This document shows, in pieces, positions 25,577 to 64,000 of a stretch of 64,000 nucleotides of DNA. Below the pieces are notes generated by a model. The model was not told where the DNA came from. It made no database searches and saw nothing but the letters and a program-made list of their open reading frames with translations. This DNA is from Bacteroidota bacterium (GTDB lineage: Bacteria; Bacteroidota; Bacteroidia; Chitinophagales; Chitinophagaceae). The position numbers and the translations under genes were made by a program. The stretch is taken from the NCBI GenBank assembly GCA_018267545.1, contig JAFDYG010000465.1, forward strand, positions 15,556 to 79,555, in the 5' to 3' direction. Position 1 is the stretch's first letter. Every line of letters starts with the position of its first letter.

Positions 25577-25625
25577 AGCAATGGTTTGCAAAAACTTACC
25601 CGGAAAATACAAATAGAATCGCGAT

Positions 25626-25652: not shown

Positions 25653-25675
25653 CGTATCAATCAGGTAAAGAGGTG

Positions 25676-41552: not shown

Positions 41553-41553
41553 A

Positions 41554-46653: not shown

Positions 46654-48417
46654 CTATACAAACAACTCCCGGTCGCGGATCTTGATGGCATCGGTGTAGT
46701 CTTCCTCCCACCAGGCCTTGTCGCTGGGCTTAACCGGAGGCTTGGCCAGCTCCAGGACCTTCTTCTTCTTATCCGCCGATGCCTGGATATTCCGAAATTC
46801 GTAGTGGTCGAAGATACGGACCGCTTCGATCATGTAGGAAGTAGCCACGCGCCGGTCCTTTATGACAAATAGATTCTCGCCATTCTTCGTATCCGCGGCC
46901 ACCGAGAAGTTATAAGAACCAAAGTAAACCCGAGCGGTTGGTTTGTCGAAATCGATAACCACGAACTTGTGGTGCATCCGCGTTCCAGAACCGCCGGTGG
47001 CTTCCTCCTTGAAAGGCTGGGGAAGATCGTCCGCGCCAAGGGCCGCAGGGGCAACGGGAAGCTTGTTTCCGTCCGGGTCGGTTACGGTGATACCGCCGAC
47101 CTTCTTGTCCGAGATGCCATAAACAAAAATCTCTTTTTCGTTGGTGACCTTTTTGATTGCGTCGAGGATCACACCGGGGGTTTCGTACAGGAACGCCAGA
47201 GAGTAGAAGCAGGAAGAAGTGGTATTATTGGAAATGTCGTCCGCTACTTCATTAAGACGTTCGTTGTCGTCGGCATGCGGAGAAAAGCTGACCCTGGCGT
47301 CGATGCCTTGAAGGCCCAGGTCATTCCAGGCCGAAGCACCGGGGCTGGTGCCGAAGTCGGCGGGAAGATCGCTCGCCCAATAGGCGTCGAATGCTTCGGT
47401 AAAGACCTGAACCGCAGTAGCGCCGGAGACGAGGGCGGCATTGTTATTTTGGACGAAAAATCCGCGCCAGCTGAGATTTGTCGAGCCACCGATCGCTTTC
47501 TGGACGGTAGGGCCATCTACGATGATCGTTTTATTATGCTGCAGGCTGCCCATATGCTGACGCTTGACGTTCTCACGCCCAGCCGACGCCACAAGGATAT
47601 CCTCGGCCTGGTTCTCCGCCGAACCTTCCTTCTTATGGTCGGCGCTATTGTCGATGATGACGCGAACGCGATTGCCCAGTCTCACCAGCCGGTCCACCAC
47701 GTCGGGCTCGTTGAAGTCATAAGCTACGACCATCACCTTTGCCTCGGTATCGGCAATCGCTTCGTCCAGCAATTTCAATATCTCTCGATAGGCTTCAAAG
47801 CCCATCCAGGTGTAGGCCTGCTTGGCCTTAGGGTGGGTAGGCGTAAAGGTCAGGCCTTTCTTGGCGCTGGCCGGGAGCAGGGTCGAGATCTTTCCATCCT
47901 GGGAATAATAGTCCACGAAAGCCTGACTACTCACAAAGCCGCGCGTAAAGGCGATGTTAAGCTGACCGGGATAAGTCTCCGAGGCCAGGACGATGTCAGC
48001 GGTCTGGGCTTCTCCATAGGAGAGTTCGTCCGTAGCTGTCATAAAGACCGGTGTGACGCGGTACGTAAAATTTCCGGGCAGATCAGCATTCAATGGGAAG
48101 TGAACCCAGCGGAACTTCTGGATGGGCGCCCGAAGCGTCGAGAACTTATTGGTGTCTTTTGATTTTGTCTGTCCAGGGAAGGTGAGGCGATTCTGCAGCG
48201 CCCAAAACTTATTGCCGTTGGGCTCCTTGTATTCGATGGCAAAGCCCACAAAATCGTTTGACGGACGGCCGTTCTTCCAGTTCATGGCGAGCAGGGCCAT
48301 GCCTTCGCCGCGGTGGATTTTTAGGGTGAACAGGGCGTTGGGGTTGCTGCCGGTTACCTGTGAGGGAGGGCCCGGCGATACAGCGGGCGTTAGAGGGGTA
48401 GCTAATACGGGGTTCAT
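46654..48417 (-). CDS. Phospholipase D superfamily protein with two HKD motifs and an N-terminal Ig/FN3-like domain
   Basis: HKD1 is LQHNKTIIVDG (His codon 47536..47538). HKD2 is MHHKFVVIDFD (His codon 46972..46974). The ~190-aa N-terminal beta-rich domain precedes them. Confidence 0.8.
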   Translation of the reverse strand: MNPVLATPLTPAVSPGPPSQVTGSNPNALFTLKIHRGEGMALLAMNWKNGRPSNDFVGFAIEYKEPNGNKFWALQNRLTFPGQTKSKDTNKFSTLRAPIQKFRWVHFPLNADLPGNFTYRVTPVFMTATDELSYGEAQTADIVLASETYPGQLNIAFTRGFVSSQAFVDYYSQDGKISTLLPASAKKGLTFTPTHPKAKQAYTWMGFEAYREILKLLDEAIADTEAKVMVVAYDFNEPDVVDRLVRLGNRVRVIIDNSADHKKEGSAENQAEDILVASAGRENVKRQHMGSLQHNKTIIVDGPTVQKAIGGSTNLSWRGFFVQNNNAALVSGATAVQVFTEAFDAYWASDLPADFGTSPGASAWNDLGLQGIDARVSFSPHADDNERLNEVADDISNNTTSSCFYSLAFLYETPGVILDAIKKVTNEKEIFVYGISDKKVGGITVTDPDGNKLPVAPAALGADDLPQPFKEEATGGSGTRMHHKFVVIDFDKPTARVYFGSYNFSVAADTKNGENLFVIKDRRVATSYMIEAVRIFDHYEFRNIQASADKKKKVLELAKPPVKPSDKAWWEEDYTDAIKIRDRELFV

Positions 48418-48543
48418 AAAATAAAGTATAAAGGTGTAGTCGAAATGACTACGTTAAAAGTAAACAAATACGCCTTCCCCATCAAATTCTGCTATCAGGA
48501 TGCGGCGCCGATTCCTACATTCGTCCCCCACAAACCTTATCAA

Positions 48544-49830
48544 ATGTCGACCAGACCCAGAAAAATAACCTTTCTGATCTCCGTTCTTGCTTTTTTGATC
48601 CCGACCTTTCTCATCGAGCGGAATATCTTACAGCATACAGGCGGGGAATTTACACTTCCATGGGATGGTTCCTTTACCAATATTGCGGTCGGAAAGAACC
48701 TGGCTTTTTTCGGCGTCTGGGGATTGTCGAAGTCTGTGTTTCAAGCCGCGTCCTCATCGATACTGTATCCCCTGACCCTGGTACCGTTCTTTTTTATAGC
48801 CGGGGCGCACCTGATTATCGCCCTGATAGTCAATGGGATCGCAGCGGCATTCTTGCTTTGGGTATTACAACGGGAGATGATTCGCCGCGGTCTGTCCCCG
48901 ATGGGTCAGCTGGCGATCCTGCTGATGATTGTCTTTTGCCTGCCCCTACCCTTGCTGGTTATCAGCGGGATGGAGTTTACCCTTTTCTTACTCATACTGG
49001 CCTTATTCGTCATCGCCTTCTCAAGACCACTACACTGGCGGCTATACGTATATGGCGCATTGTTGGTAGCCGTTCGCTATGAGGGTTTGTTGATAGTCGC
49101 GGCATTTGCGGGTCTGCTCCTTTACCGAAAACAGCAGGTCGCTGCAGCACGGCTCCTTCTGGCCGCAATCGTTCCGATTGTCGGTTTTGGACTTATTTCC
49201 TTATCCAAAGAAAGCCCATTTCTTCCTCCGGCTCTTCTACAGATAAGAAATATCGACGTATATGCGGCTACGATCATCGGGACAATACTGATTATTGGGG
49301 TGGTCTTTGTACCATTGCCTTATAAAAAACCCTGGCTGGCTTGTTCCGTGCTTGGCATCATCGCGCTGGTAAGGACCTGGGAGGCACTCGGCGGAGTCAC
49401 CGCCGCGTCGGTTGGCGTCTGGCGCCAGCAGATGGAAGTGGCGAAGTTTGTTCGCCGGTATTACAACCGTTATGGCGTGAGCGTGAATGAGATTGGAGTC
49501 GTATCCTACTTCACCGATGGCCGGAAGGTGGACCTGACGGGGGTGGCCAATTATTCGCCGAAGTGGGGAATGCCCAAATGGGACCAGAAGAAACGGTTTC
49601 ACTGGTCGCCACTGACTTCGGATTCGCTTAGTTATTGGGAAGGCGCAATGGTGGCGATCATGACCGGACCAAAGTCGGATGAAAAGCCGGTGGGCCGCTG
49701 GGGAAAGGTGGCTTCCTGGAACAATATTCATTTCTACGCCCTGGATACGTCGATAGCCAGGAGGCTTAGAAATAATCTGCGGGACTATGAAAAGACGCTG
49801 CCTACGAGTGTCCAGGTACAATATTATTGA
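48544..49830 (+). CDS. Polytopic integral membrane protein (GT-C/ArnT-like topology?)
   Basis: It has about 9-10 hydrophobic helices followed by a ~130-aa soluble tail. The start is set at ATG 48544 (MSTRPRKITFLISVLAF) rather than at 48445. Confidence 0.55.
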   Translation: MSTRPRKITFLISVLAFLIPTFLIERNILQHTGGEFTLPWDGSFTNIAVGKNLAFFGVWGLSKSVFQAASSSILYPLTLVPFFFIAGAHLIIALIVNGIAAAFLLWVLQREMIRRGLSPMGQLAILLMIVFCLPLPLLVISGMEFTLFLLILALFVIAFSRPLHWRLYVYGALLVAVRYEGLLIVAAFAGLLLYRKQQVAAARLLLAAIVPIVGFGLISLSKESPFLPPALLQIRNIDVYAATIIGTILIIGVVFVPLPYKKPWLACSVLGIIALVRTWEALGGVTAASVGVWRQQMEVAKFVRRYYNRYGVSVNEIGVVSYFTDGRKVDLTGVANYSPKWGMPKWDQKKRFHWSPLTSDSLSYWEGAMVAIMTGPKSDEKPVGRWGKVASWNNIHFYALDTSIARRLRNNLRDYEKTLPTSVQVQYY

Positions 49831-52800
49831 GTCGCCTTCTCGATAAGATACTCTGGGTCTTTGATGATACTTAGATACTGCGTCTTGTCGCGATAATCCG
49901 AATACACGACGGTTTTATTGACACCAATAATGACTAGAAGGCGACCGCTCAAGGCATAGAACTCTTTTAGCTTGAGCTGCTCTAAGGCGCGCTTGATCGA
50001 TTCCTGTTTATTTTTGAAATAGGTTTCCGAAGTATTCGCCAGCTTTCTGCTAAATAAATGGACCAGGTAATTGACACAGTCCAGGTCGGTTGGTTCTTCG
50101 GGCAGCGTATTATCGGTTAGCTCGGACCAATCTATATATGACTTTGCATCGAAAGAGGCGTATAGGACGTGATTGGTGTTTAGGAAGAGTCTTTTATTGC
50201 TGGGCCGCATAATCAGTACTCTATTCCATTCTTCGGGGAGCTTGATCTTGCTCATTTCGAGACCACTATTCCAAACATTGGCAAGGCTGGTGACAACGGG
50301 AAGGGGTGTATATGGGTCCTCCTCTATAAAGCCAGCTTCGTACTCCAGGCGTAACCCGTCATCCCAGCGGGCCGAAATGCCGTCATAGGTTTGCAGGATT
50401 CGCATAAGCTGCAAGGGCTGGCCCCGGTACGTAAGATTTGGAAGCGTAGTCAGCTTCTGATTCGACTCGATCATCGGAAACTTTATCTTCTCCCAGAGCA
50501 GATCACGATTTTCGGGCTGTCGATAAGTCCAATAGAATTCGGTGGGGATTTTTAAGTTAACGGGCTGGTTTAGTACGGCGTAGGGGTTATCGAATTCGGC
50601 CAGTCGGCTATTCACCAGCTCCAATAACCGTGTCTCGAAGAAGGTCTTTAGTTCAGTAGCGAGCTCCTCCATCATCAGCTGCCGCCGGGAAACGGAGACA
50701 CGCTTCTCGTCGACGACTTCAAGGTCGAATTCGACGAAGAAGGAAAGCGAAGTGTCGGGGTCGCTCATGCTCAGGTTCGACTCGATATTCATCCCTTTCA
50801 GGCTGACGTTGCTCAAGTTGTTATTGGGAATCCAGCAGTATCCCTTCCCATCCGCTTCTACTATATAATGCCGGTCCGCTTGTATCCGTTCCCGCATATA
50901 GTAAAAGCTGTTTCCTTTTAACAGCTTGAAATAAGGTATATATATCCGGTATTTACCGAGACCCTGGTATTCCCCTTCCTCGACGATGAAATCCATAGCG
51001 GCGGCGATTTCTTCGATCAGGGGAGCCGCGTCGAAGTCGTCGTCTTCCAGGTGTTCCTCCAGCTCTTCCAGCAAGTTTAATTTGATATCCTCCGGCGAAT
51101 TGGTCCAGCCAGGCCCAAGTTGCAACCCGTCTTCATCCAGAAACGATTCATAGCTCAACGCACAGGGAGTTTTCGAGACGTCTTTCTTCAGGAAGTCCCT
51201 AAACTTCTCGTCCCAGGCGACAATGTCACTCACTACGTCCTCTCGCAGGCGGAGTTCGATGGTAGTGCCACTGGGAGACTTGCTTAGGCGTTTCAGCTCA
51301 CCGAAATCGTGGGTTCCATTTATCTCGAACTGCCATGCTACTGACTCGTCGTCGTCATAGCCGGTATTCGAATGACGCTTCGTTTTTATAATCAGTCTAT
51401 CGGCCAGCATGAAATAGCTGAGCACCCCGATTCCAAATTGTCCGGTCCGGCCCAGGTGGAAACCCCGCTCTTCGCACTGGCGTTCCAGCTCCCGTATTTC
51501 GTGACGCTTGGAGACTCCATTTACGAGAAAGAATTGCTCGATGATTCCGCGGGTCATGCCCACTCCCTGGTCCTTGCAAACCAGCCAGCAGCCGTCCGGC
51601 CGTTGCTCCAGCGAAATCTGTATCTTATTTAGCTTTGCAAGGGTGGGTATTTCACTTACGTCGCGGTCTTCCATGATGATTGCGTAGGCGATCTTTTCCT
51701 TGATGGCGTCGAAACAGTTTTGGATCAGCTCTCTATAAGCTGCTATCGAGTCGCCATAAAGCTGGTTACCACCTAGGAGCTCGAGGATCTTAGCCATATT
51801 GGGCCGAAAGGCGCCGTGGATAAACACATAAGCGTTGTCTCGAGGTTGAATATCGCACAGGATCTGGGGATTGATGACCCATTCATAGCCTTCTATAGCG
51901 CCGACGGGGGAATAGTTCAGGGGTTTTAGCCTAATCAGCTCGTTGCTCAGTTTCAGTTCGTTTTCGATCCACTGAACCGTCTCCTCGACCGCCTTATGAA
52001 GGAGCGCACGCTCTGGCCGAGCATATACGGAGTATTGGTGCTCCTTTAATAATAGGGTGAACTGGCTATCTTTCTGCCAGTAGACAAGACTTCCCGGGCT
52101 GACGGCGCGATGCGTAAGCAGCACCTCGGGGGTTCGTTCGGGGTCGTTTTCCATCACATCTGCGACTCGCAGGCATATAGCCAGATAGCGAAGGTGCACG
52201 GTCACGCCCGGCGCTACGATACGGGGGTCAAAGCCGCTGCCCAATAGATGGTCGAGGCCATAGTGGTGACTCTTGCAGACTTTGATGAGGTCATCCCACC
52301 AGGAGCCATAGTTCTTCCAGGTGGTACCGCTGAAGTTCTTTTTGATCCAGTCGCCACTCCAGTCGTTGTGTTTGTGGCGTATGTAGTACGATAGAATATA
52401 ATTGGAAAGTGAGATGTCTTTTACCAGATCCTTGCGGATGTCGAGGGATTGCAAGCGTTCGTTATTGTCGACCCATCGTTGAAACTGGGTAATTTCGTCC
52501 TCCGAAAGTCCTTCCTTCTTTTCGACGAGGTATAGGTAATGACGTTGTACGGAGTCATAGTCTGGGCTCATGCCGATGTCGTGGAGATAGGCGCTGAGCA
52601 GGAGCAGGGTAAGGTCGTAATCGGATAGGATGGATTTTGTCTTCTCGGGCATGAGCTCCCACATGCGTTCGGCTACGCGAAAAGAATGTTCGGCGTCGTG
52701 GAGGGTGAAATCTTTGGGGGTGGTGCCGCCTTTGTTCAATATTTGCTCGATGGCGGGCATGACCTCGGGGCGGTTGAGGAAGTTGAAGGCAAAGGCGGCG

Positions 52801-52865
52801 TAGTCACCCTGGCGGGTCTTCAACGCCTGATAGATTTTCGTGTCTTCCCAGTTCTTGTTTGGCAT
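49824..52865 (-). CDS. HD-phosphohydrolase / GHKL (Hsp90-MORC-like) ATPase fusion protein, paralog 1 (1013 aa)
   Basis: The HD domain has FTLHDAEHSFRVAERM...LLSAYLHDIGMSP (HD codons 52578..52583). The GHKL domain has N-box YRELIQNCFDAIKE, G1 box KDQGVGMT and G2 box GRTGQFGIGVLSYF. The C-terminal region of about 420 aa is uncharacterised. Confidence 0.75.
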   Translation of the reverse strand: MPNKNWEDTKIYQALKTRQGDYAAFAFNFLNRPEVMPAIEQILNKGGTTPKDFTLHDAEHSFRVAERMWELMPEKTKSILSDYDLTLLLLSAYLHDIGMSPDYDSVQRHYLYLVEKKEGLSEDEITQFQRWVDNNERLQSLDIRKDLVKDISLSNYILSYYIRHKHNDWSGDWIKKNFSGTTWKNYGSWWDDLIKVCKSHHYGLDHLLGSGFDPRIVAPGVTVHLRYLAICLRVADVMENDPERTPEVLLTHRAVSPGSLVYWQKDSQFTLLLKEHQYSVYARPERALLHKAVEETVQWIENELKLSNELIRLKPLNYSPVGAIEGYEWVINPQILCDIQPRDNAYVFIHGAFRPNMAKILELLGGNQLYGDSIAAYRELIQNCFDAIKEKIAYAIIMEDRDVSEIPTLAKLNKIQISLEQRPDGCWLVCKDQGVGMTRGIIEQFFLVNGVSKRHEIRELERQCEERGFHLGRTGQFGIGVLSYFMLADRLIIKTKRHSNTGYDDDESVAWQFEINGTHDFGELKRLSKSPSGTTIELRLREDVVSDIVAWDEKFRDFLKKDVSKTPCALSYESFLDEDGLQLGPGWTNSPEDIKLNLLEELEEHLEDDDFDAAPLIEEIAAAMDFIVEEGEYQGLGKYRIYIPYFKLLKGNSFYYMRERIQADRHYIVEADGKGYCWIPNNNLSNVSLKGMNIESNLSMSDPDTSLSFFVEFDLEVVDEKRVSVSRRQLMMEELATELKTFFETRLLELVNSRLAEFDNPYAVLNQPVNLKIPTEFYWTYRQPENRDLLWEKIKFPMIESNQKLTTLPNLTYRGQPLQLMRILQTYDGISARWDDGLRLEYEAGFIEEDPYTPLPVVTSLANVWNSGLEMSKIKLPEEWNRVLIMRPSNKRLFLNTNHVLYASFDAKSYIDWSELTDNTLPEEPTDLDCVNYLVHLFSRKLANTSETYFKNKQESIKRALEQLKLKEFYALSGRLLVIIGVNKTVVYSDYRDKTQYLSIIKDPEYLIEKATQ

Positions 52866-52873
52866 GGTTAAAG

Positions 52874-55800
52874 TTACTGCGTTTGATCTCTTTCTACAAT
52901 TTTGATCAGATATTCCGGGGTATCGAGATAGGGGGCATAAGAATCCATGGTTTCTTCTCTAAAATAATCAAATCCCTCCTCGTCAATTCTAGAGACTGTA
53001 GACATTAGAAAATAAATCTCTTTTAATCCCAGTGTCTTGAAGATCCCTTCCATCATATCCGGATACAATTCGTATAGCGCTTCCCACTTATCTGGAGAAA
53101 AACTGTAAGCAGCATATATTATAAATGAAACGCATTCCACTTTGTTGTTAACATCAGGGCTTGCTTCTCCGCTGTCAAACTTGAAAAATTTAACAAAGGT
53201 ATCTTCGTCATAATACTTAACGAGAGGATGATTGCCGTTCAAGACATTTTTAGAATGGTTGCTTTCCATGAGGAGTATTTTGTTCCATGAACTGGGCAAT
53301 ACGACTTCGTGAAAAAAAATATCCTTTCCGATCGGTTTTCCATCCATTACAAGGAATGGATAAGAGGTATCGTCCGGTTTAAAAGCCAACCGATAGTATA
53401 ATTTAAAGTAAATATCTAAATCCATGCCACCACCGAAGCTGTCTGAATTGGAAATATATTTTTTTAATTCAAATCTTAAACGCTGGAGTTTTTCTCCATC
53501 CAGGACCAGGTCATTATATCTGTAGTCGGCCTCGCTGGCCTTGAAATGGGTGGAGTCATCTACTGCGGGGTATTTGATCTTCTCCCAAATAACCGAGTCT
53601 TTGAAATTTTCGTACGGACTAGCAGTCGCCCAATATGGTTCCTTAGGCACAAATCCTAAGTGTAAACTACCCAACATTGAATAGCAATTATCAAACATAG
53701 CCCTATTCTTCAGGAACAAACCATCCACCCTTTCTTGTAATCGTTGTCGCACTGCCTGGAGGAACAGATCGTCACACATCATCTCTTTTCTATTTACCTG
53801 CAATTTGGATGAGCCCAGCTCTTCGAAATCCAATTCAAGATATATGTGCTTAAACCATCTGTCTAACGATTGCGACAATTCAATCTGTATCCCTTTCAGG
53901 CTGAGAAGAGGAATGAGATCGGGTGACCATATATGGCCGTTTCCTATCTCGTTGATAAAATGAATGCCCTCATGCATTTGTTCCTTTAGAAAAACAAGCG
54001 AATTCCCTTTTTTTAATTTGAAATAAGGGATATGCAATCTATACTTCACGAAATCGGAAACGATTCCTTCTTCTTCAATAAAACAGATACTTTTTCTAAT
54101 TTCTTCAACCGTCTCTTCATATATTAATGCAAAGGCTTTTCTCAGTTCTTTATCTTGATGCGTCAAAAGCGCTTTGTCATTATCTTCACTTTTTCGTACA
54201 AGTCCTGACTTTTCTATAATCTTATCTATTATATCCTGATGCCCGGCCGTCCAGCCCGCTTCAAGCCTCACCGTCCGGCCTGAAAAAGACTTGTAATGAA
54301 GCGTGCAAGGGGCCCTTCGAACATTTGTTTTAAATAACTTCTCAAACTCTGTGTCCCAGGTATCGATCGCGCCTACGATTTCTTTTTTGAGCTTCAGTTC
54401 GATCTTTGTTCCGCTCTTTAGACTTTTCTCCTTAGCCAGCTCGCCAAAATCGTGTCTACCATTGATCTCGAATCGCCATCCGATAGATTCCTCGTCGCGA
54501 TAGCCCGTATTGAGCTCCCGTTTTGTCTGGATGACGATCTTGTCGGCCAGCATAAAGTAGCTAAGGACCCCGATTCCAAATTGTCCCGTACGGCCCAGGT
54601 TGAATCCTCTTCGCTTACATTCTCGTTCCAGTTCCATGATCTCGTGCCGTCTCGACACCCCGCTCTGGAGGAAGTACCGCTCGATGACCCCTTTGGTCAT
54701 CCCTACCCCGCCGTCTTCGCAAACCAGCCAGTACTCGTCGCCGCGCCGCTCCAGGGAGATAGTGACGTTGATCAATTTACCCCAAATTGTTGCCCCCTCG
54801 ACAGGCTCCAGGTCATTTGTGATAATTTGATAGGCTATTCGTTCCTTAACGGCGTCGAAAGCATTTTGGATAATTTCGCGGAAGGCCCAGATCGAGTCGC
54901 CGTATAATTGGTTACCGCCTAGGAGCTCGAGTATTTTGGCCGTATTGGGCCGGAAGGCACCTTGTATATATTCGTATGTTCCCGGCTTGGGCTGGATATC
55001 TCGCTTGATGATCGGTTCTACCGCCCATAGATACCCTTTTAACTCTAAGGAAGGTGAGTGTGTCAGCGGGCGCAGCCGCACCAGTTCTTCGCAGAGTCTT
55101 AGCTCCTGCTCGATCTGATCGGCGGTATCCTCGATGGCCTTATGGATAAATGCTTTATCGGGACGGGCAACGATGACATATCCGCTGCCCTTCTGTCTCG
55201 TAGCAAATTGGTGATCTTTTAGCCAGTACTTCAGGCTGTTTTCGCTCACCTGGCGGTGTGTCAAAATCACTTCCGGCGTCCGTTCGGGATCGTTCTCCAT
55301 GACGTCGGCTGCCCGCAGACAGATAGCCAGGTAGCGCAGGTGAACGATAGCTTCATCACCGATGGGCTTAGGATCAAAATCTCCTTTTAGCAGATGATCG
55401 AGCCCTTCGTGATGACTCTTACAGACAAGAACCAGGTCATCGACCCAGTGTAAATAATTCTTCAGGGGAAGCGCCGTCAGGTTTGTGTTGATCCAGTCAC
55501 CGCTCCAATCGTTGTGCTTGTGTCGGATGTAATAAGATAGAATATAGTCCGAGAGCCTTTCGTCATTCACCACTGCTTTCCGAATGTCTAACCCTCCGGC
55601 GCCTTCGTCATTGTCTATCCATTCCTGAAGTTCTTTGACCTCTTCTTCCGATAATAAGCCGCTTCCCGTCTCGCTTGTCAGAAAGCCATGATGCCGCTGC
55701 ACCCGGTCAAACTCCGGGCTCATTCCTATATCGTGCAGGTAGGCGCTCAGCAGCAGCAAACCCAGCTCATAATCCGAAAGCACCTCTTTGGTTTCGTCGG

Positions 55801-56017
55801 GGATCAGCTCCCACATCTTCTCCGCCACCCGGAACGAATGCTCAGAGTTGTGCAACGTAAAGTCCTTTGGCGTCGTCGCCCCCAGGTCCAGGATCGTTTC
55901 GATCCTATCCATCACCTCCGGGCGCTCCAGGAGGTTCCGCATGGCTGCGGCGTAGGGGCTTTTTCTTTCGGTTAAGGTTTGATATATAGTGGTATGTATC
56001 CAGCTTTGTTTCGGCAT
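52874..56017 (-). CDS. HD-phosphohydrolase / GHKL ATPase fusion protein, paralog 2 (1047 aa)
   Basis: It has the same architecture as paralog 1: FTLHNSEHSFRVAEKM...LLSAYLHDIGMSP, FREIIQNAFDAVKE, EDGGVGMT and GRTGQFGIGVLSYF. Its C-terminal third is divergent and AT-rich. It lies 8 nt upstream of paralog 1. Confidence 0.75.
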   Translation of the reverse strand: MPKQSWIHTTIYQTLTERKSPYAAAMRNLLERPEVMDRIETILDLGATTPKDFTLHNSEHSFRVAEKMWELIPDETKEVLSDYELGLLLLSAYLHDIGMSPEFDRVQRHHGFLTSETGSGLLSEEEVKELQEWIDNDEGAGGLDIRKAVVNDERLSDYILSYYIRHKHNDWSGDWINTNLTALPLKNYLHWVDDLVLVCKSHHEGLDHLLKGDFDPKPIGDEAIVHLRYLAICLRAADVMENDPERTPEVILTHRQVSENSLKYWLKDHQFATRQKGSGYVIVARPDKAFIHKAIEDTADQIEQELRLCEELVRLRPLTHSPSLELKGYLWAVEPIIKRDIQPKPGTYEYIQGAFRPNTAKILELLGGNQLYGDSIWAFREIIQNAFDAVKERIAYQIITNDLEPVEGATIWGKLINVTISLERRGDEYWLVCEDGGVGMTKGVIERYFLQSGVSRRHEIMELERECKRRGFNLGRTGQFGIGVLSYFMLADKIVIQTKRELNTGYRDEESIGWRFEINGRHDFGELAKEKSLKSGTKIELKLKKEIVGAIDTWDTEFEKLFKTNVRRAPCTLHYKSFSGRTVRLEAGWTAGHQDIIDKIIEKSGLVRKSEDNDKALLTHQDKELRKAFALIYEETVEEIRKSICFIEEEGIVSDFVKYRLHIPYFKLKKGNSLVFLKEQMHEGIHFINEIGNGHIWSPDLIPLLSLKGIQIELSQSLDRWFKHIYLELDFEELGSSKLQVNRKEMMCDDLFLQAVRQRLQERVDGLFLKNRAMFDNCYSMLGSLHLGFVPKEPYWATASPYENFKDSVIWEKIKYPAVDDSTHFKASEADYRYNDLVLDGEKLQRLRFELKKYISNSDSFGGGMDLDIYFKLYYRLAFKPDDTSYPFLVMDGKPIGKDIFFHEVVLPSSWNKILLMESNHSKNVLNGNHPLVKYYDEDTFVKFFKFDSGEASPDVNNKVECVSFIIYAAYSFSPDKWEALYELYPDMMEGIFKTLGLKEIYFLMSTVSRIDEEGFDYFREETMDSYAPYLDTPEYLIKIVERDQTQ

Positions 56018-56044: not shown

Positions 56045-57607
56045 TCAATTTCCAAGAGAAGACAGGTTATACGTCAGGGAGAAAAAATACCCGGCAAGCG
56101 GAAATTTTGTAACGGTAGGCACGGCCTCAGGCAATAGAGCCGCAGGGTATTGCGCCCCTTCAGAATAAGCCTTATCGAGAACCTTGCTTTCCCTCAGCGT
56201 AAGACCGGTGCTCAAAACGAGTCGATTTTTGTTCCCGATGATCAATGACGGCCCCACGTGGAGATTGACGACAGTTGCACCAGTATTCAAACTGGCGCCT
56301 ATCGAACCGGCCAGTTTTATAGGAGCGCTGGAACGACGATAGATGTGCATCAGCGCACCGATCGATACCAATGCTTTCTTTCCTGCGTTAGCGTATGAAA
56401 TGGTCGATAAGGAGTCGGTCACTGGTTTATAATAGTAATCCTTCCCAAGAAAATCAGGATTGCCCGCGTTGATAAAAAGTCCTGTACTGAAATCGATCTT
56501 GATCCCGCCCTTTGTCCGGAGGGTTACCGCAAATTTCTGTTCATTTGGCTTTGGACAAGTCAGCAGGGGGTCGGCGGTCACCGTGAACGTCACTTTTGCC
56601 TCGTCCCGCTTCATAGGGATCAAAGGGGCATAGTATTCGTAGCTGGACGTATTGATCCGTTTCAGGTCATCGAACAAACTATATATCTTACCATCGTCAC
56701 TGATTTTGTGGATGTTGGCCAACAAATCTTTGGCTTCCGCCATTCGGTCCTGCATGTCTTTCGTGACATGGTCATAGTCGTCCTTTGTTCGAGAGACTTG
56801 ATCCTGAGCATCTCCCTGCGCTGCCTTTGCTTCACGTACTTTCGCCTCTGCCACGGGAGCGTCTCGAGTGCCCTTTGCCTTTTTCAATGCTTCGTTGGCG
56901 GCGTCGAGCGCATCTTGCGCTCGTGCGAGTCTTTGCCGGTTAGCCGAAAGTTTTTGCTGATAATCTTCATAGCTCTTATCGCTATACTGATGGAGCAGCT
57001 CGTTCATTCTCCTCAGTGCATAGTCGGCACTTTTGATTTGATCTACTGCCAGTGCATTCCATTTATTGGCGACCTCACCGATTTCGTTGCCGCCTATATT
57101 TAGATCGGACGCGCGTTGAACGACCAGTTGTTTGACCTGGCTGATAATATTCGCGGAAGTCTTGTCACATTGTTTGCTGATTGCAACGGCCTGATTGTGG
57201 ATATCCACTCCATGATTGATCAATAGAGCAGTGGATACGATGACGTTGTATTCGCTATAGAAGTCCTCCTTCCGACTACTGGCCGGGGTAGCAGCGCTGC
57301 TGTCGGCAAGCGAGTGGTCGCCCGGGGATTTAGAAGCACCAGTAATGAATGCGGGAAGTGTCAGCGTGGTGAAGATAGCAGGGACTGCAGTATTAAAATT
57401 CGACGTTACCGTGTCCGCAGAAACCTTATACAGAAACCGGTTGATGTTGATGAGTTTAACCTGCACACGTTCGCCATGCTCAAACTCATAGTATTTCGTA
57501 GCATCGGGGAGCGATAGATAGTCGATGGTCTTTGTCGTGATCTTGGTCGACTCACAGCCGACCATCCCACCTACTGCTATAAGCAACAAGTAATAAATGT
57601 GTTTCAT
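56045..57607 (-). CDS. Lipoprotein with a central coiled-coil region (hypothetical)
   Basis: It has a lipobox signal peptide, MKHIYYLLLIAVGGMVGC. Its ATG at 57607 overlaps the metzincin stop (ATGA). It also has an Ala/Lys/Asp/Gln-rich helical centre and a beta-rich C-terminus. Confidence 0.55.
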   Translation of the reverse strand: MKHIYYLLLIAVGGMVGCESTKITTKTIDYLSLPDATKYYEFEHGERVQVKLININRFLYKVSADTVTSNFNTAVPAIFTTLTLPAFITGASKSPGDHSLADSSAATPASSRKEDFYSEYNVIVSTALLINHGVDIHNQAVAISKQCDKTSANIISQVKQLVVQRASDLNIGGNEIGEVANKWNALAVDQIKSADYALRRMNELLHQYSDKSYEDYQQKLSANRQRLARAQDALDAANEALKKAKGTRDAPVAEAKVREAKAAQGDAQDQVSRTKDDYDHVTKDMQDRMAEAKDLLANIHKISDDGKIYSLFDDLKRINTSSYEYYAPLIPMKRDEAKVTFTVTADPLLTCPKPNEQKFAVTLRTKGGIKIDFSTGLFINAGNPDFLGKDYYYKPVTDSLSTISYANAGKKALVSIGALMHIYRRSSAPIKLAGSIGASLNTGATVVNLHVGPSLIIGNKNRLVLSTGLTLRESKVLDKAYSEGAQYPAALLPEAVPTVTKFPLAGYFFSLTYNLSSLGN

Positions 57608-58404
57608 TTCTTTTTCCAATAATGTGTGAATATAAATTGAGAATCCAGTCGTGACAGTTTCTGTGGCCAGGGGATCGCCAATGACCCCGGCTTCAAGATA
57701 GAAACAGGTACCGCATAGAGCATGATAGACAGGGAATCGAACCGGGAGTGGTCTGCACCATCGAATTGCTTAAGGACAAACTGGTCGACCGAATCTCGTC
57801 CCCAATGGTAGACGCTGTCATAATACGCGTAAAGTCTCGTCGTATCCCAGTTGATCTTTGCATCTGGGCTTTGCAATTCATGCAACAGGCCAATCATATG
57901 GCCGAATTCGTGCAGTACCGTTCTTGTAAAAAGGGCGCTGTCTTTGGTCTCATCTAGTCCTTGAAGGCACATAGTCGTCTGTCCTTTGTACCTGGGGTCA
58001 AGGGCCTGCTTACCGACAAGGGAGCTATAGCCGAGGCAGTCAAAGCAAATCCGGATATCGCTTTGTTCCTTTAGGCTGACCTCCCGTAATTTTAATTTCG
58101 CCATGTTGGTCCAAACCTTCCCCAGAGCAAGGACTCTGTCGGTAATGTTCAGCGGACCGCCATCAAAATATACCCTGATCGTGGCGCCGATGTCCCATAA
58201 AGTGCTTTTTACCGCTACCCAGGGCAAGGTAGTGTCGCCTTTCCGGTCAAAAACCAGTTGAGAAGGAAGGATCGTGCAAAGCGGTGTGCCTGGGGGGCTG
58301 GTATGGACATGCTGATGGGGCCTCTGACGGAAAGGCCAGAGACCCCACAGGCCCAACAACAAGACGATAATGATTGCAACGGTTATTTGAAGGCGCATTG
58401 ACAC
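57604..58404 (-). CDS. Membrane-anchored/secreted metzincin zinc metalloprotease (astacin/M12-like)
   Basis: The motif VLHEFGHMIGLLHE matches HExxHxxGxxHE. It has an N-terminal hydrophobic anchor (ITVAIIIVLLLGLWGLW). Confidence 0.75.
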   Translation of the reverse strand: MSMRLQITVAIIIVLLLGLWGLWPFRQRPHQHVHTSPPGTPLCTILPSQLVFDRKGDTTLPWVAVKSTLWDIGATIRVYFDGGPLNITDRVLALGKVWTNMAKLKLREVSLKEQSDIRICFDCLGYSSLVGKQALDPRYKGQTTMCLQGLDETKDSALFTRTVLHEFGHMIGLLHELQSPDAKINWDTTRLYAYYDSVYHWGRDSVDQFVLKQFDGADHSRFDSLSIMLYAVPVSILKPGSLAIPWPQKLSRLDSQFIFTHYWKKK

Positions 58405-58468: not shown

Positions 58469-60271
58469 TTATGACTTTACAAATTTCATTTCTTTAAAAT
58501 TCCACCCCCCTTTCACTGCCCGCACCCTGAGCACATTAGTCCCCTTCTCCAACCTCACCCCCTTCACACTTACCTCCTTCCAACCATCCCCTGCCTCAAT
58601 CACCACATTCTCCCTATTCAAGAACGACAATGCACCACTCCCCGACACCATAAACTTCACCACATACTTCCCCGCCTCTGCCACATTCACCGTATACTGC
58701 ATCCACTCCCCATCTTCAATGCTAAAAACACTATACTCAGAAGCCGAACCCTGTATATCCACCCCATCATTCCGATACGTCCACCCCCGATTCCCCGCCC
58801 CCGGATTCTGCGGCATCTGATACTGATACCTCGCCGAATCATTATCATGATACGCATATCCATTCCTCCCCAGATCAAAATCCACCGCCTTCACCACCGC
58901 CCCATTCCGAATCACATGCGCCACAAACGGCCTCGTCTCAACGGACCCCACCTGCCTGAACATCGCATCCGTCACATCCCTATGATATATATTGTTCTGC
59001 ACCTTGATATCCTCCAGCAGCTGATTCAACGCAGCCTCCGCTTCCGCCTGCGTCGGCTTCGGCCCATTCTTCAACCAGTAATTCAACAACGAAACATACC
59101 CAGGCGTCTGCCTAATCTCCAGCGGATTATTAATCCCCATCTTCTTCTCCTGCCACCAGCACCACCCAATCTGACGAGACTCCACTAACTGTATCGCCTC
59201 GGTAAACCATGTATTCGAATTCTCCCCCGACTCCCCCAGCCACAGCGGAAAATTATACTCCGACTGCCAGTTAAGAAACCCCTGCACCGCCGCAACCGTA
59301 TTCACATTCCCATACTTATGAAAACTAACCGCCATATTCTTATCCCACAGCGGAAAGATCCCATTATAGTTGTTCCCAAACCCATTTCCCTCCACGATAA
59401 TAATATGCGACGAATCCACCTCGCGTATCGCAGAAGTAATCTTCATCATCAGCTCCCGAAGCGGCTTGTTCGACTTCTCCTTCGTCCCCCGGCGATCCGC
59501 AGGATCCTCAAAACCCCAATTCGGCTCATTAATAATATCATACCCCCCAATATTCGGGTCGCCAGCATAACGAGCAGCCAGCTTCCGCCACAACGCAATC
59601 GTCTTCTGTTGATTGGCCGCAGACTCCCACAAAGACGGCTTCCCCGGATCACGGTCCGAAATATTCAGATCATTCCCCTGTCCACCCGGAGCCGCATGCA
59701 AGTCCAGAATCAGATACATATTATTAGCCCGGCACCACGCCAGCAAACTATCCGTCATCTCAAATCCTTTAGAAATCCAGGTATTCTGCCCAGCCACCGG
59801 CTCAGCCTCCACCGGCAACGTATACAACCCATAGTGCATCGGCAGACGAATCGAATTAAAACCCCAGGCCGCCATCGAGTCGATATCCCGGCGTGTCGTA
59901 TGATTCTTCAGCCACCCCTCATAAAAAGCCTTTGTCTTCTCCTCCCCAACCACATCTACAATACGCTGACGAATATGATGCTGCTGACCAATGTTCCCCA
60001 GTTTAAACATATAGCTCTCCTGCAACATCCAGCCACCAAGACCCATACCCCGAAGAATAACGGTCTGCCCGGAAGCATCGACAATAACCTTTCCATTAGC
60101 CTTTAAAAAACCACGAGGAGCCGTGGTCACGCCCGCCGACGCCGCCCCGGCCACATTCACCGCCCCAGCGCCGGAAGCAGCCGCCACCTTCACCGGAACA
60201 GAATTTTGAGCAAAGGAAAAACCCAGGGTAAAGACAAAAGCAAGCGTTAAACAGAATAAGTGTTTTTTCAC
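58469..60271 (-). CDS. Glycoside hydrolase family 5 (cellulase/mannanase-type) with a C-terminal CBM6/35-like module
   Basis: It has a signal peptide, the acid/base motif GYDIINEPNWG and the nucleophile motif PLWLGESGEN. The C-terminal beta-sandwich has EDGEWMQYTVNVAEAGKY. It has a GTG start overlapping the upstream stop (GTGA). Confidence 0.85.
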   Translation of the reverse strand: MKKHLFCLTLAFVFTLGFSFAQNSVPVKVAAASGAGAVNVAGAASAGVTTAPRGFLKANGKVIVDASGQTVILRGMGLGGWMLQESYMFKLGNIGQQHHIRQRIVDVVGEEKTKAFYEGWLKNHTTRRDIDSMAAWGFNSIRLPMHYGLYTLPVEAEPVAGQNTWISKGFEMTDSLLAWCRANNMYLILDLHAAPGGQGNDLNISDRDPGKPSLWESAANQQKTIALWRKLAARYAGDPNIGGYDIINEPNWGFEDPADRRGTKEKSNKPLRELMMKITSAIREVDSSHIIIVEGNGFGNNYNGIFPLWDKNMAVSFHKYGNVNTVAAVQGFLNWQSEYNFPLWLGESGENSNTWFTEAIQLVESRQIGWCWWQEKKMGINNPLEIRQTPGYVSLLNYWLKNGPKPTQAEAEAALNQLLEDIKVQNNIYHRDVTDAMFRQVGSVETRPFVAHVIRNGAVVKAVDFDLGRNGYAYHDNDSARYQYQMPQNPGAGNRGWTYRNDGVDIQGSASEYSVFSIEDGEWMQYTVNVAEAGKYVVKFMVSGSGALSFLNRENVVIEAGDGWKEVSVKGVRLEKGTNVLRVRAVKGGWNFKEMKFVKS

Positions 60272-62934
60272 GGTGAAATATTTGATAAGAATTCAGATAA
60301 TGAAACCTCATTTTCAATAGAAAGCTTCTTCCGCAGCCGGTAACGGCTGCTCTCCACCCCTCGAATCGAAAGATTCAACAAATCCGCTATCGCCTTGGTC
60401 GACAAATTCAATCTTAAATAAGCACACAACTTCAAATCAGAAGGCGTCAGCAACGGATACCCCTCCCGCAATGTCTTCAAAAAGTCATTGTTCGATTTGT
60501 CGAAATACTGCGAAAACCGCTCCCAGTCATCATTCATCTCCAGTTGCTCATTAATGATCTTGATAATCCGCCGGACGTTCTTCGCACGCCTTTCCGGCTC
60601 CTCTTCCTCCTGTAACTTCAAGATCTCGTCCTTTATCTTGTTCATCAGCTCGCGCTTCTGAAGCAAATTCATCGTATTCGAAGCCAGCTCCACATTATTA
60701 TGCTCCACCTCGGTCTGCAACTGCACATTCTTCAGCCGCATAATCTCCTTCTCGCTTTTTTCGATCTCAAGCTGGTGCTGATACTGCAGCCGCTTCTGCT
60801 CCTCATCGAACTTCTCCCGCTGCTTACGCAGGCGGTCCGTATGCTGCTGGATGTACTTCTGCTGCTGGCGCTTATAAAAGAAATACATGATTGCAATCGA
60901 CAAAACGACATAAATAACATAAGCTACAATCGTATTGTACCACGGCGGCGAAATACTAAACTCAAATCGAGTCACGGCCGACTGCTGTCCGTTACTATTC
61001 CGCGCCAGCACCTCAAAGACATAATTCCCCGCGGGCAAATTCGTATAGGACCGTTCCGTCCGCTTAGACCACGCGGACCACTCCTGCTCATAGCCGCTAA
61101 GCCGGCAGCTATACTCCACAAACTCCCCAAAATAAGGCGACGAATATTCGAAGTGCAGCGAATTCCACTTGTACCGGATAGAGCTCGCAAACTTATAGCT
61201 GTCATAAAGCTGCGACGAATCCTTCCTAAACAAATACCCCCCAAACAACACGCTGTCCCGCTCATGAAAAGCCGTGACGTTCCGCAACAAAATCCGCAGC
61301 GGTCTATTCGTCGCTCGATACTTCTCGTAATTGATATGGTAAAAACCCACCTCTCCCGCGATCAGGATATTATTCTTATTGATCGGGTAGATAAATTCCT
61401 CGTCATTCCCCAGCACGCTATTATTGAGTTCCGAGAAATAGGTTATGACAGGACTCTCCGGATGCGATAAATCAATAACCCCCGGTCGCTTATTTTCAAT
61501 AAACCAGATATTCCCCTGTGTATCCTCCCGCAGATAAGAAACCGACTTCGAACCCAGCAGACGCTTAAAAAACTCCGATTCCTTAAAATCCTTAAGTCCC
61601 TGGTCATACTCGAAAATCCCTACCCTTGTCACCAGGACTATCTTATTTTGAATCTTATACAGGTGATTATGCCCCGAAGACAGTATCCCCTTCTTATCGA
61701 TATACGGATGACTAACCGGCGCGCCCGTATCATTGAAGGTTATCTTATACAACCCCTGATAGGGATGCACCACCCAGATATCATCCCCCGAAACCACCGT
61801 ATACTTGGCCGATTCGAAGAAAGCATGAATCTTAGGATTGACAAACTTCCCATTGACGTAGTTATACACATTGACCCCGCTATACGTTCCCGCAATAATC
61901 CTTGGCGCCGGCTGCTGCCCACTTAAAGGCTGAAAAAACCAAAAGCCATTCGATGAATCGAGAGCAGTACAAGCATTCCCGGCCACAATAAATGCCCCAT
62001 CATTCTTACCCATCAACAGCTGATTATTGACGACCGAAAGCCCCCAGACAATCCCATTGCTCCCCTTCACCAGAGAAAAATCCTGCTGCATTCCGCTCAA
62101 ATCATTATCCGGCCGCAGCGGCATGCTAAATAAGCCATAGCCCGTACCGATAAAAAGTTTATTATCATGAATCGCCGCCGAGTACCCCGGACTCCGATTC
62201 TCCGAGCTCGGCGTGATATGATTGATCGCACTATTGTAAATAACCAGGTCGATCCCATTATTGAGCCCCAGCCAGAAATTCTTTTCCCCATCGACCATGA
62301 TCGCATTGATCGTATTGGACTGCAGCCCCTCCTTCTTGGTGACGTGCTGCAAAATTTCGCTCTTCGTATTAATCACATAATAACCATCCAGCCGCGTACC
62401 GACGATGATCTGCTCGGTGTCGACCGCGCAGATCACATGGACAAATTGCGAGCTAAGCATCGACAGCGTCGGTGACTCCAGCTTGCGCAAGCTATCCTTG
62501 TCGTATAAATAAAATCCCAGCCTTTGACTCGCCATCAATATCCCATGCGACCCAAAGGTCGTCAGGGCCCGAATACCAATCCGGTCGTGACTAAACTCGG
62601 GGCGCGGACTCAGCTGTACCCAGCCCGTATCCTTAAAAACCATCATCCCATGCTCGTACTGCTGGGCGATCAGCAACCCACGGGCAGTAGCAAGAAAGCT
62701 CCAGTTGATGCTTTTATAAGCGGTGATATGGCCGTCGTGGAGGCGAAAAATGCGTTTGTTCGACTGGAAAAACACATCGGCCCCATAATGAACCACCCGC
62801 CAGACGTCGGTAAAATCGGTCTCCCCCGCAGGAATCTCCGGCTTTAACGACCGATAACTCAGCGCACCCTTCGCATCTATATCGAAATACCCAAAATCCT
62901 GCTGACCTCCGACATAAACCCGATCGTCGACCAC
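60268..62934 (-). CDS. Hybrid sensor regulator: beta-propeller/Y_Y_Y domain, TM helix, coiled coil and LuxR-type HTH
   Basis: Propeller-like repeats are followed by a Y_Y_Y region (YRLSGYEQEWSAWS...YTNLPAGNYVFEV), a TM helix (IVAYVIYVVLSIAIMYFF), and a C-terminal LuxR HTH (LTPSDLKLCAYLRLNLSTKAIADLLNLSIRGVESSRYRLRKKL). In-frame homologous sequence continues upstream to 63189 without a canonical start codon (see the finding on this gene). Confidence 0.8.
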   Translation of the reverse strand: MVDDRVYVGGQQDFGYFDIDAKGALSYRSLKPEIPAGETDFTDVWRVVHYGADVFFQSNKRIFRLHDGHITAYKSINWSFLATARGLLIAQQYEHGMMVFKDTGWVQLSPRPEFSHDRIGIRALTTFGSHGILMASQRLGFYLYDKDSLRKLESPTLSMLSSQFVHVICAVDTEQIIVGTRLDGYYVINTKSEILQHVTKKEGLQSNTINAIMVDGEKNFWLGLNNGIDLVIYNSAINHITPSSENRSPGYSAAIHDNKLFIGTGYGLFSMPLRPDNDLSGMQQDFSLVKGSNGIVWGLSVVNNQLLMGKNDGAFIVAGNACTALDSSNGFWFFQPLSGQQPAPRIIAGTYSGVNVYNYVNGKFVNPKIHAFFESAKYTVVSGDDIWVVHPYQGLYKITFNDTGAPVSHPYIDKKGILSSGHNHLYKIQNKIVLVTRVGIFEYDQGLKDFKESEFFKRLLGSKSVSYLREDTQGNIWFIENKRPGVIDLSHPESPVITYFSELNNSVLGNDEEFIYPINKNNILIAGEVGFYHINYEKYRATNRPLRILLRNVTAFHERDSVLFGGYLFRKDSSQLYDSYKFASSIRYKWNSLHFEYSSPYFGEFVEYSCRLSGYEQEWSAWSKRTERSYTNLPAGNYVFEVLARNSNGQQSAVTRFEFSISPPWYNTIVAYVIYVVLSIAIMYFFYKRQQQKYIQQHTDRLRKQREKFDEEQKRLQYQHQLEIEKSEKEIMRLKNVQLQTEVEHNNVELASNTMNLLQKRELMNKIKDEILKLQEEEEPERRAKNVRRIIKIINEQLEMNDDWERFSQYFDKSNNDFLKTLREGYPLLTPSDLKLCAYLRLNLSTKAIADLLNLSIRGVESSRYRLRKKLSIENEVSLSEFLSNISP

Positions 62935-63190
62935 CGCAAGCGAACGGACGATACTCCCGTTGGGCAGAGAATAGGTCTTCCAAAAAGTGCCGTCGAAAAC
63001 TAATAACCCATCGTCATTAGCAAAATAAAACAGCCCCCGCCGGTCCCGGTCGATGAACCGATTCTGGTTCCCCGAGGCATAAATCTTCTTGGTATAATTG
63101 ATGATCTCCGGTATGAGAATCCCCGTCTGCCCAAAGCAGCGCGAGCCGGGCCCAATACCGACAATCAGTGCAAAAAATATCGTTAAGAGC

Positions 63191-64000
63191 CTATTGATAG
63201 ATAGCGATTTTATGTGTTCTTATAAGATAGGGAATATTTTTCGATTCGGACCCATTGTTGAAATAGATAGCCTTTGAACTTTGCAGCGGCATATGACAAT
63301 CCATACAGCTGCTACCCGAGACCTCAACAGTATGCGTAACCCCCTTATGACAATCCATACAAGTGTTCCGTGCAACAGCCCCGTGCGGGTCATGACAGGT
63401 CACACAAGTCATCCCACTCTTCTGATAACAGACGCTCGCCATTAGCAGCTGCACCTGCTTTCCATGCACATCCGGCTCGTTACGAGGAACACCTCCAAAG
63501 TCCGGCTCGTAAAAATGCGACAAAGTATCCCCCGGGACAAATGCAAAAAGTGTCCTCACCGTTGCCTGATCGTTCCCCGAATGACAAGTCGCGCAAAGGT
63601 CCATCTGTCTCTGCCGGGGCAACCCTTTAATCGACACCATCCCCTTCTCCTTTGGATGCTCCGCATGCTCCCGACCCGGACCATGACAACGCTCACAATC
63701 GATTCCATAAACAATACTGGCGCGGTCCAATTTGTCCTGCAATTGCATCGGCCCCGTCTGAACCGACTCGCGAGCCACAAAAGAAGCATGACACTCGAAA
63801 CACCGGCTTGGTATCACCCGATTAAACCGGGCGCGCCCCGCGGGAAAACCCGGGCTGTTAATCCATGCATGTTGAGCGGTCAGGTAGGTAAGGGGCAGCT
63901 GGAAGAGCGTATCCTCCTTCCAATAGCCAAAGGTTTGGGCCTTTTCACCGGAGCCAAAGACAATGTCGAAGGTCTCGGACTTTGCGGGCCGGCCCGCCAC
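63191..64000 (-). CDS. Multihaem c-type cytochrome, C-terminal part (gene continues beyond the window end)
   Basis: The visible 269 aa contain six CxxCH motifs (CFECH, CERCH, CATCH, CVTCH, CMDCH twice). Confidence 0.7.
   Translation of the reverse strand: MAGRPAKSETFDIVFGSGEKAQTFGYWKEDTLFQLPLTYLTAQHAWINSPGFPAGRARFNRVIPSRCFECHASFVARESVQTGPMQLQDKLDRASIVYGIDCERCHGPGREHAEHPKEKGMVSIKGLPRQRQMDLCATCHSGNDQATVRTLFAFVPGDTLSHFYEPDFGGVPRNEPDVHGKQVQLLMASVCYQKSGMTCVTCHDPHGAVARNTCMDCHKGVTHTVEVSGSSCMDCHMPLQSSKAIYFNNGSESKNIPYLIRTHKIAIYQ

Follow-up and report, generated by a model that had tools for sequence, protein, structure and literature searches.

The stretch of DNA analysed here, hereafter the window, comprises 64,000 nucleotides (nt) of contig JAFDYG010000465.1, from a member of the Chitinophagaceae (Bacteroidota; assembly GCA_018267545.1). 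Its minus strand carries two large open reading frames (ORFs), gene A and gene B, which are separated by 8 nt and are probably co-transcribed (Table 1). Each encodes an N-terminal HD-CE phosphohydrolase domain fused to an Hsp90-like ATPase and followed by a fast-diverging C-terminal region. An initial annotation, made from the letters of the DNA, had presented the pair as a candidate undescribed two-component immune system. Its description of the two genes was accurate: the ORFs of 1047 and 1013 amino acids (aa), the 8-nt gap and all the runs quoted as identical were found, and the architecture of HD domain, Bergerat-fold ATPase and divergent C-terminus was upheld. The peptide runs common to both translations are YILSYYIRHKHNDWSGDWI, HLRYLAICLR, ENDPERTPEV, AKILELLGGNQLYGDSI, GRTGQFGIGVLSYFMLAD and YR[LI]xIPYFKLxKGNS. 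A scan for sigma-70 promoters and terminators gave nothing above shuffled expectation; such an empty scan is expected if the host is of the Bacteroidota type. By megablast, the 6.2-kb region had no match in the E. coli genome, and its nearest relatives and gene order suggest metagenomic genomes of a Bacteroidota-like kind.

Compared by BLASTP, the two proteins are 45% identical over their full length (expectation value, E = 0). The identity is unevenly distributed, with about 60-61% over residues 1-590 and 26% over residues 591-1047. Motif comparison showed that every catalytic residue of the HD domain and of the ATPase is intact in both. Within the N-terminal 590 residues, A and B share 61% identity, and either of them shares 60-62% with solo homologues of other genomes. 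Neither is thus the closest relative of the other. A recent local duplication was considered as the origin of the pair and was rejected on the same comparison of distances. The C-terminal regions across the clade that includes A and B are all only ~30% identical to one another.

The N-terminal domain was assigned to the Pfam family PF24391 (HD-CE), with scores of 152.3 bits for A (E 2.6e-44) and 160.6 bits for B (E 7.9e-47) and a curated gathering cut-off of 27 bits. The match spans profile positions 3-262 of 263. As this family is already catalogued and a homologue in UniRef already bears the name 'HD-CE domain-containing protein', the term undescribed could not be kept. Residues H56, H60, H95-D96, H168/D170, H202 and D238 occur unchanged in all of 22 diverse homologues as well as in A and B; several arginines of the domain are also invariant. 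Across 22 to 110 homologues, the catalytic residues of both enzymes, HD and ATPase, do not vary, and the conservation anticipated for them by the initial annotation was confirmed. Neither protein matched the inactive-form family iHD-CE (PF24401) in the Pfam search. According to PMC12871103, where the term is set out for the related class Calcineurin-CE, a sister family, the suffix 'CE' stands for 'conflict effector'; that paper credits the source to Nicastro, Burroughs, Iyer & Aravind 2023 (NAR 51:11479).

The HD domain had also been described as dGTPase/SAMHD1-like, a likeness that was not recovered: no dGTPase or SAMHD1 model was matched in NCBIfam at E <= 1, and residues 1-340 searched against the PDB with phmmer hit no HD protein at E <= 5, with chance-level matches only. 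Other resemblances were found. The PADLOC RT_UG24 (DRT) model is matched by the HD-CE region towards its C-terminus, at positions ~699-899, which form the HD part of the model. A weak match to the PADLOC Cas3 HD model (E 5.5e-4) lies far below the family cut-off, and the Pfam families PDEase_I and Ppx/GppA domain III were matched weakly as well.

The ATPase boxes of A (REIIQNAFDA, EDGGVGMT and GRTGQFGIGVLSYF) conform to the Hsp90-type motifs ExxxNAxDA, DxGxGM and GQFGxGFxS; those of B read RELIQNCFDA, KDQGVGMT and GRTGQFGIGVLSYF. In the numbering of A, the GHKL residues invariant in the 22 diverse homologues are E381/N385/D388, D435xG437 and G481xG483. The positions E379/N383 given previously follow the numbering of B and correspond to E381/N385 in A. 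The best NCBIfam matches were to HSP90 family protein/HtpG models, with E between 1e-17 and 1e-20 overall (A, 1e-17 to 1e-19; B, 8e-20 and 3e-17). When a profile of the family was searched against the PDB, the best match was the HtpG structure 1y4s (E 1.6e-16), and the top 60 were all Hsp90, GRP94 or TRAP1. Alignment with a genuine plasmid-borne HtpG by hhalign gave a probability of 98.9%. The AlphaFold2 model (predicted local distance difference test score, pLDDT, 79.7) retrieved only members of the Hsp90 family among its top 50 Foldseek matches, in alignments 430-500 columns long that cover the Hsp90 N and middle domains. The boxes of the ATPase had previously been called Hsp90/MORC-type, and with both rankings filled by the Hsp90 family the MORC part of this label was abandoned.

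The resemblance extends into the middle domain. Residues 354-764 of A align with residues 13-356 of HtpG in one collinear BLASTP alignment (E 3e-14), in which the arginine loop LQVNRKEMM of A falls on the catalytic-arginine loop LNVSREMIQ of HtpG. The profile search against 1y4s placed the same loop on R336 of E. coli HtpG, in a weak second stretch of the match. R743 is invariant in the family, and the equivalent loop of B is VSVSRRQLM. The central ATPase is of the Hsp90 type, with an N-domain, a middle domain and a catalytic-arginine loop. Nevertheless, scores of 62-71 bits with the HtpG equivalogs NF003555 and NF010683 are far under the respective cut-offs of 371 and 455; therefore A and B are not HtpG orthologues. 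With the Pfam model HATPase_c_3, A scored 21.1 against a cut-off of 25, and B gave no match. Restriction-enzyme models were matched by the GHKL region as well, namely BbrUII/HgiDII (E 7e-10 and 8e-8) and, weakly, PADLOC REase_II, again far below the family cut-offs.

About half of what had been taken for a ~400-aa C-terminal sensor is thus accounted for by the Hsp90 middle domain; the other part, residues ~775-1047 of A, stood as a separate domain. Modelled alone with AlphaFold2, residues 775-1047 gave a pLDDT of 86 and a predicted template modelling score (pTM) of 0.85. Fold searches with this model found no match in the PDB (best E 0.36) and none among the predicted viral structures of BFVD (best E 0.48). 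Judging from the model, it is not an Hsp90 C-terminal dimerisation domain. In the close clade, mean pairwise identity falls from 0.60 in HD-CE and 0.62 in the GHKL domain to 0.32 in the M-like region (M for middle) and 0.24 in the C-terminal domain, which is the pattern of a conserved effector/switch with a variable sensor. The steep C-terminal divergence is seen family-wide, and therefore the conserved front and diverged back are no signature of the A/B pair.

The family is large: 677 or more homologues of ~1050 aa were retrieved from the database, and an exhaustive search with residues 346-1047 gave 350 clusters (50% identity) at E <= 1e-30. In almost all full-length relatives the match starts at about residue 345-360, so that the N-terminal ~350 residues appear as a constant part of the protein and the fusion as fixed. 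At least 416 relatives were counted among 185,579 species genomes (one genome per species). Carriers belong to Bacteroidota, Acidobacteriota, Actinomycetota, Planctomycetota, Verrucomicrobiota, Proteobacteria, Cyanobacteria, Nitrospira and Deinococcota, with a divergent branch in Paenibacillus and Methanosarcina. This distribution is very patchy and resembles that of accessory genes.

The number of copies per locus was determined with a family hidden Markov model run against every ORF of 83 foreign loci, 56 of which have flanks of 3.2 kb or more to either side. A solo copy was found in 81 of them and a second copy only in L051 and L064, so homologues are far from always being in tandem, a possibility raised by the initial annotation. 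The pair of L051 (9983-16369, from a Thermoleophilaceae metagenome-assembled genome, MAG), with a 3-nt gap, is the sole other complete tandem; the second copy of L064 is cut by the contig end. The six contexts of the closest relatives, taken from precomputed annotation, all contain a solo gene, and among the 120 best matches only P0001 and P0016, that is A and B themselves, share a contig. Clustering of three genes per side at every locus yielded no conserved partner gene. With 81 of 83 loci solo and no conserved neighbour, a single protein makes up the functional unit. The two L051 copies are each other's nearest relatives (0.54 versus 0.45-0.49), indicating that tandem duplication arose independently at least twice. 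The first of them carries substitutions at family-invariant HD positions (H56Y, D170E, S201V and H203R in the numbering of A) and may be a degenerate-HD partner.

Mobile elements were also searched. The phage genome collection contained no true homologues, and in the plasmid collection the matches were either genuine htpG genes or remote HD+GHKL proteins with 26% identity. IMG/VR gave one match, a solo homologue in L084 (1-10066, UViG_2690315632_000001). It is surrounded by terminase and portal gene fragments, a regulator of the HTH-Peptidase_M78 (ImmA/IrrE) type and an IS4/5 transposase; these phage-gene fragments and the transposase indicate a decaying prophage.

The divergent branch comprises loci L073-L080, hosted by Paenibacillus, a Chitinophagaceae MAG, a Bryobacteraceae MAG and Methanosarcina (for example L073 9881-12946 and L076 9893-12865). 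Its members keep the HD-CE and GHKL domains (profile positions ~7-545), and their C-terminal ~450 residues are different and unannotated. A downstream neighbour of ~350 aa recurs in the Methanosarcina loci.

Elsewhere, 108 immediate neighbours of homologues were compared with defence models, and matches were obtained to mad3, mad8, RmrT, QatA, PifA, PbeA, PDC-S01/S03/S20 and NERD. ParE, MNT/HepT and Imm26 were found among further neighbours, and several homologues adjoin regulators of the Crp type, which bind cyclic nucleoside monophosphates (cNMP), or ordinary metabolic genes. The defence enrichment of these neighbourhoods is suggestive only. The initial annotation had asked whether homologues occur near known defence genes: some flanking genes do match PADLOC, but housekeeping genes occur as well and the association is only moderate.

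In the window itself, a dense conflict/defence island that includes both HD-CE genes occupies the region from ~16 to 56 kb. The defence-island context claimed beforehand was borne out by Septu, HerA, NACHT, CHAT and PLD genes; several large ORFs of the island matched no PADLOC model. The 461-aa ORF on the plus strand and gene B are convergent, with a 7-nt overlap in the stop codon region of B. On the other side, the 524-aa ORF lies 27 nt from gene A and matched neither Pfam nor PADLOC, and the 266-aa ORF showed only a weak HEXXH-type Peptidase_M10 motif. As these two ORFs do not stand beside homologues elsewhere, they are probably a separate module. The ordinary genes at 58469-64000 fit a polysaccharide-degrading environmental bacterium.

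A metagenomic contig of a related organism (L001) allowed the island to be compared. L001 holds a single HD-CE gene, 43-46% identical to those of the window and at another position within its island. The M20 peptidase is 89% identical in the two genomes, whereas island genes near it are 36-69% identical and arranged differently, making a defence-island integration hotspot likely. The block formed by HerA, the 450-aa gene, PtuA and PtuB is kept as a unit in L001 (3720-9987, 53-69% identity, with a counterpart of 436 aa for the 450-aa gene) and may be either Septu plus a HerA pair or one composite system. A defence hotspot whose cargo turns over rapidly behaves in this way.

Table 1. Position of genes and domains in the window, with the main support for each.
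Feature	Position	Strand	Support or remarks
Gene A (P0001)	52874..56017	(-)	1047 aa; HD-CE, Hsp90-like N and M domains, C-terminal domain
A residues 52-307, HD-CE phosphohydrolase domain, predicted effector	55097..55864	(-)	Pfam PF24391
A residues 351-560, Hsp90-type Bergerat (GHKL) ATP-binding N-domain	54338..54967	(-)	PDB profile, hhalign, Foldseek
A residues 561-774, Hsp90 middle-domain-like region with invariant R743 loop	53696..54337	(-)	BLASTP, 1y4s, Foldseek
A residues 775-1047, fast-evolving alpha/beta C-terminal domain, candidate sensor and/or dimerisation domain	52877..53695	(-)	AlphaFold2
Gene B (P0016)	49824..52865	(-)	1013 aa; architecture as gene A
B residues 52-305, HD-CE domain	51951..52712	(-)	Pfam PF24391, 160.6 bits
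B residues ~349-557, Hsp90-type GHKL N-domain	51195..51821	(-)	NCBIfam HSP90, E 8.2e-20 at residues 352-544; motifs
B residues ~558-1013, M-like region and divergent C-terminal domain	49827..51194	(-)	26% identity to A counterpart
Patatin-domain protein	15962-18745		927 aa
Large protein	18758-23359		1533 aa; no family match
AAA ATPase	23356-24321		
DUF4062 protein	24326-25660		
M20 peptidase	26243-27628		89% identical to L001 13144-14508
DUF4062-NACHT-HEAT protein	28826-31840		
DUF7379/LCAT/CHAT/TPR-S protein	31918-37245		1775 aa
Septu PtuB	37242-38117	(-)	291 aa; HNH
Septu PtuA	38104-40203	(-)	699 aa; N-terminus also matches PtuB/HNH models
HerA and 450-aa gene	part of block 37242-43482	(-)	HerA 642 aa; 450-aa gene without Pfam match
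PLD-domain protein (PLD nuclease)	46654-48417		
461-aa ORF	48445-49830	(+)	No family match; 36%-identical 491-aa homologue in L001 island
Two co-directional ORFs directly upstream of gene A	56045-58404	(-)	524 aa and 266 aa, overlapping by 16 nt
GH5 cellulase with CBM6	58469-60271		Beyond island
Y_Y_Y/two-component-propeller regulator	60268-62934		Beyond island
Multihaem cytochrome fragment	63191-64000		Beyond island

The explanation towards which we lean, with some reserve, is that A and B are self-sufficient single-protein immune sensor-effectors, independent paralogues with different C-terminal specificities that came to stand side by side in a hotspot. It is supported by the domain identities, the fixed fusion, the single-gene unit, the patchy distribution, the variable neighbourhoods, the prophage copy, the defence island, the conservation gradient and the precedents set out below. 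In this respect the initial annotation was reasonable: an immune sensor-effector fits both the HD-CE name and the accessory-gene distribution. What did not hold was its reading of the pair as a two-component system.

In other immune proteins, the role of switch is played by STAND or AAA+ NTPases. For the domains identified here, we infer the following connecting logic. The Hsp90-like N and M module would serve as the switch, acting as an ATP-driven dimerising clamp. The fast-evolving M-like region and C-terminal domain would sense the infection; the most plausible cue is a phage protein, bound in the manner of an Hsp90 'client', and its recognition would license ATP-dependent closure of a homodimer. 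Closure would then unite or unmask the N-terminal HD-CE metal-dependent phosphohydrolase domains. Once active, these may degrade nucleotides (nucleoside triphosphates, NTP, their deoxy forms, dNTP, or a related small nucleotide) and so starve phage replication, probably by abortive infection.

Several observations weigh against this explanation. A search of the accessible literature found no experimental work on the HD+Hsp90-like architecture, whether on a defence phenotype, a substrate or a trigger. No PADLOC v2 system protein was matched over its full length; the matches were the partial one to RT_UG24 and those to the Cas3 HD (weak) and REase_II. Nucleotide hydrolysis and nuclease activity of HD-CE are not separable by sequence, and the weak Cas3-HD match would suit the latter. 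Instead of being a sensor, the C-terminal domain might serve only for dimerisation, under weak constraint. Finally, about one tenth to one sixth of the 108 flanking genes match PADLOC, a proportion that includes some generic models and comes without a control set, and several housekeeping genes (among them gyrA, polA and one for a tRNA synthetase) are found beside homologues too.

A two-component system, in which A and B would form an obligate heterodimer, is decidedly unlikely. Such an asymmetric GHKL clamp, with a different C-terminal sensor on each protein, would resemble sensor/helper pairs. At 81 of the 83 foreign loci the protein works without a paralogue, the related hotspot of L001 holds one copy only, and no other two of the 120 best matches share a contig. 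Two genes 8 nt apart on the same strand and probably co-transcribed would suit such a pair, and GHKL/Hsp90 proteins act as dimers; yet both window copies retain every catalytic residue, and in their N-terminal part the two proteins stand as far apart as either does from solo homologues. Together with the lack of a conserved neighbour, these results go against the heterodimer put forward by the initial annotation. The independent recurrence of tight tandems (L051, with mutually nearest copies, and the cut second copy of L064) argues in its favour, and the altered HD positions in L051 hint at a division of labour there. An asymmetric Hsp90-like A/B heterodimer, or a mixture of A2, B2 and AB, whose two C-terminal domains would read two different phage cues, also appears unlikely. 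The copies would then be more than redundant and would form a counterpart, derived from a chaperone, of paired sensor/helper NLRs. In its wider form, this unlikely reading would make such proteins the first immune receptors in which an Hsp90 client-binding clamp, and not a STAND/AAA+ switch, gates an effector that degrades nucleotides.

Different activities were considered as well. The main rival is a restriction-like enzyme. Its GHKL module would clamp onto DNA in the way of MORC, type IIB topoisomerases or restriction enzymes of the BbrUII type, while its HD domain would cut phage DNA or RNA as a Cas3-like nuclease. We regard this as doubtful: the matches to BbrUII/HgiDII, REase_II and the Cas3 HD that suggest it are far outscored by those to Hsp90 chaperones, which include the middle domain and the arginine loop, and Hsp90 binds protein clients, not DNA. 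GHKL-nuclease defence proteins do exist, for instance VcSduA (PMC12137116), but the HD domain of A and B belongs to HD-CE, whose sister class acts on free nucleotides (PMC12871103). Moreover, neighbour clustering revealed no conserved methyltransferase or other self-protection gene nearby. A non-immune accessory role, as a stress chaperone or a signalling enzyme (in which, for instance, an Hsp90 paralogue would be linked to the hydrolysis of an alarmone or cyclic nucleotide), would be in line with the weak PDEase_I and Ppx/GppA matches and with the Crp-type regulators and metabolic genes next to several homologues. It is very unlikely in view of the very patchy spread, the absence of a conserved operon, the hypervariable C-terminus and the setting of the genes, in a defence island here and in a prophage remnant in one homologue; within one hotspot of related genomes, the HD-CE gene is also only 43-46% identical as against 89% for the flanking gene.

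The single-protein sensor-effector can be set beside systems that are already known. HSP90-related modules are reportedly described, in the 2023 study by Nicastro and colleagues, as STAND analogues coupled to nucleotide-targeting effectors. As far as can be told from their domains, the architecture of A and B would fit this HSP90-coupled conflict-effector class, itself a computational prediction. A and B are further members of a known, computationally predicted kind, and the tandem pair is their one uncommon feature: taken singly, each protein appears to show no essential difference from the class, and a tandem like theirs is rare (2 of 83 other loci). The locus is nevertheless a handy test case, offering two diverged, apparently intact copies in an operon-like arrangement and a related genome with a single copy at the hotspot. 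The family is a broad one, with at least 350 clusters at 50% identity in many phyla and some archaea.

With Hsp90/HtpG, A and B have in common the boxes of the Bergerat N-domain, the middle domain and the catalytic-arginine loop. They differ by their N-terminal HD enzyme and by an unrelated domain of ~270 aa that replaces the Hsp90 C-terminal dimerisation domain; in addition, their genes are accessory and not universal. VcSduA is a validated single-protein anti-phage system in which a GHKL ATPase is fused to a Shedu DUF4263 nuclease; it is predicted to be a dimer, and its ATPase is thought to control the effector (PMC12137116). Like A and B, it combines a GHKL ATPase, a clamp-like middle domain and an enzymatic effector in one polypeptide. 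However, its effector is a C-terminal PD-(D/E)xK nuclease instead of an N-terminal HD domain, and homology was established for no part other than the GHKL fold. In the proposed activity, the nearest parallels are the metal-dependent phosphohydrolases that starve phages, namely dNTPases of the dGTPase/SAMHD1 type and Calcineurin-CE. The latter is an experimentally demonstrated dNTP-depleting anti-phage effector of the PUA-Calcineurin-CE-HAD system (PMC12871103), and dGTPase defence is covered in PMC13519002. Regulation in A and B would pass through the fused Hsp90-like ATPase, as opposed to the allosteric nucleotides or the PUA sensor of dNTP-depleting systems.

In overall organisation, A and B resemble STAND/NLR-like sensors such as Avs and bNACHT, which likewise join a conserved effector and an NTPase switch to a hypervariable sensor end and form single-gene units with occasional tandem paralogues in defence islands. 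If confirmed as defence proteins, they would link client recognition of the Hsp90 kind directly to nucleotide depletion. In prokaryotic innate immunity, a chaperone-type GHKL clamp would then take its place as a third kind of ATP-driven switch beside STAND and AAA+/ABC ATPases. The GHKL/Hsp90 ATPase of A and B has a fold unrelated to STAND, and would act by closure of a dimer instead of assembly of an oligomeric ring.

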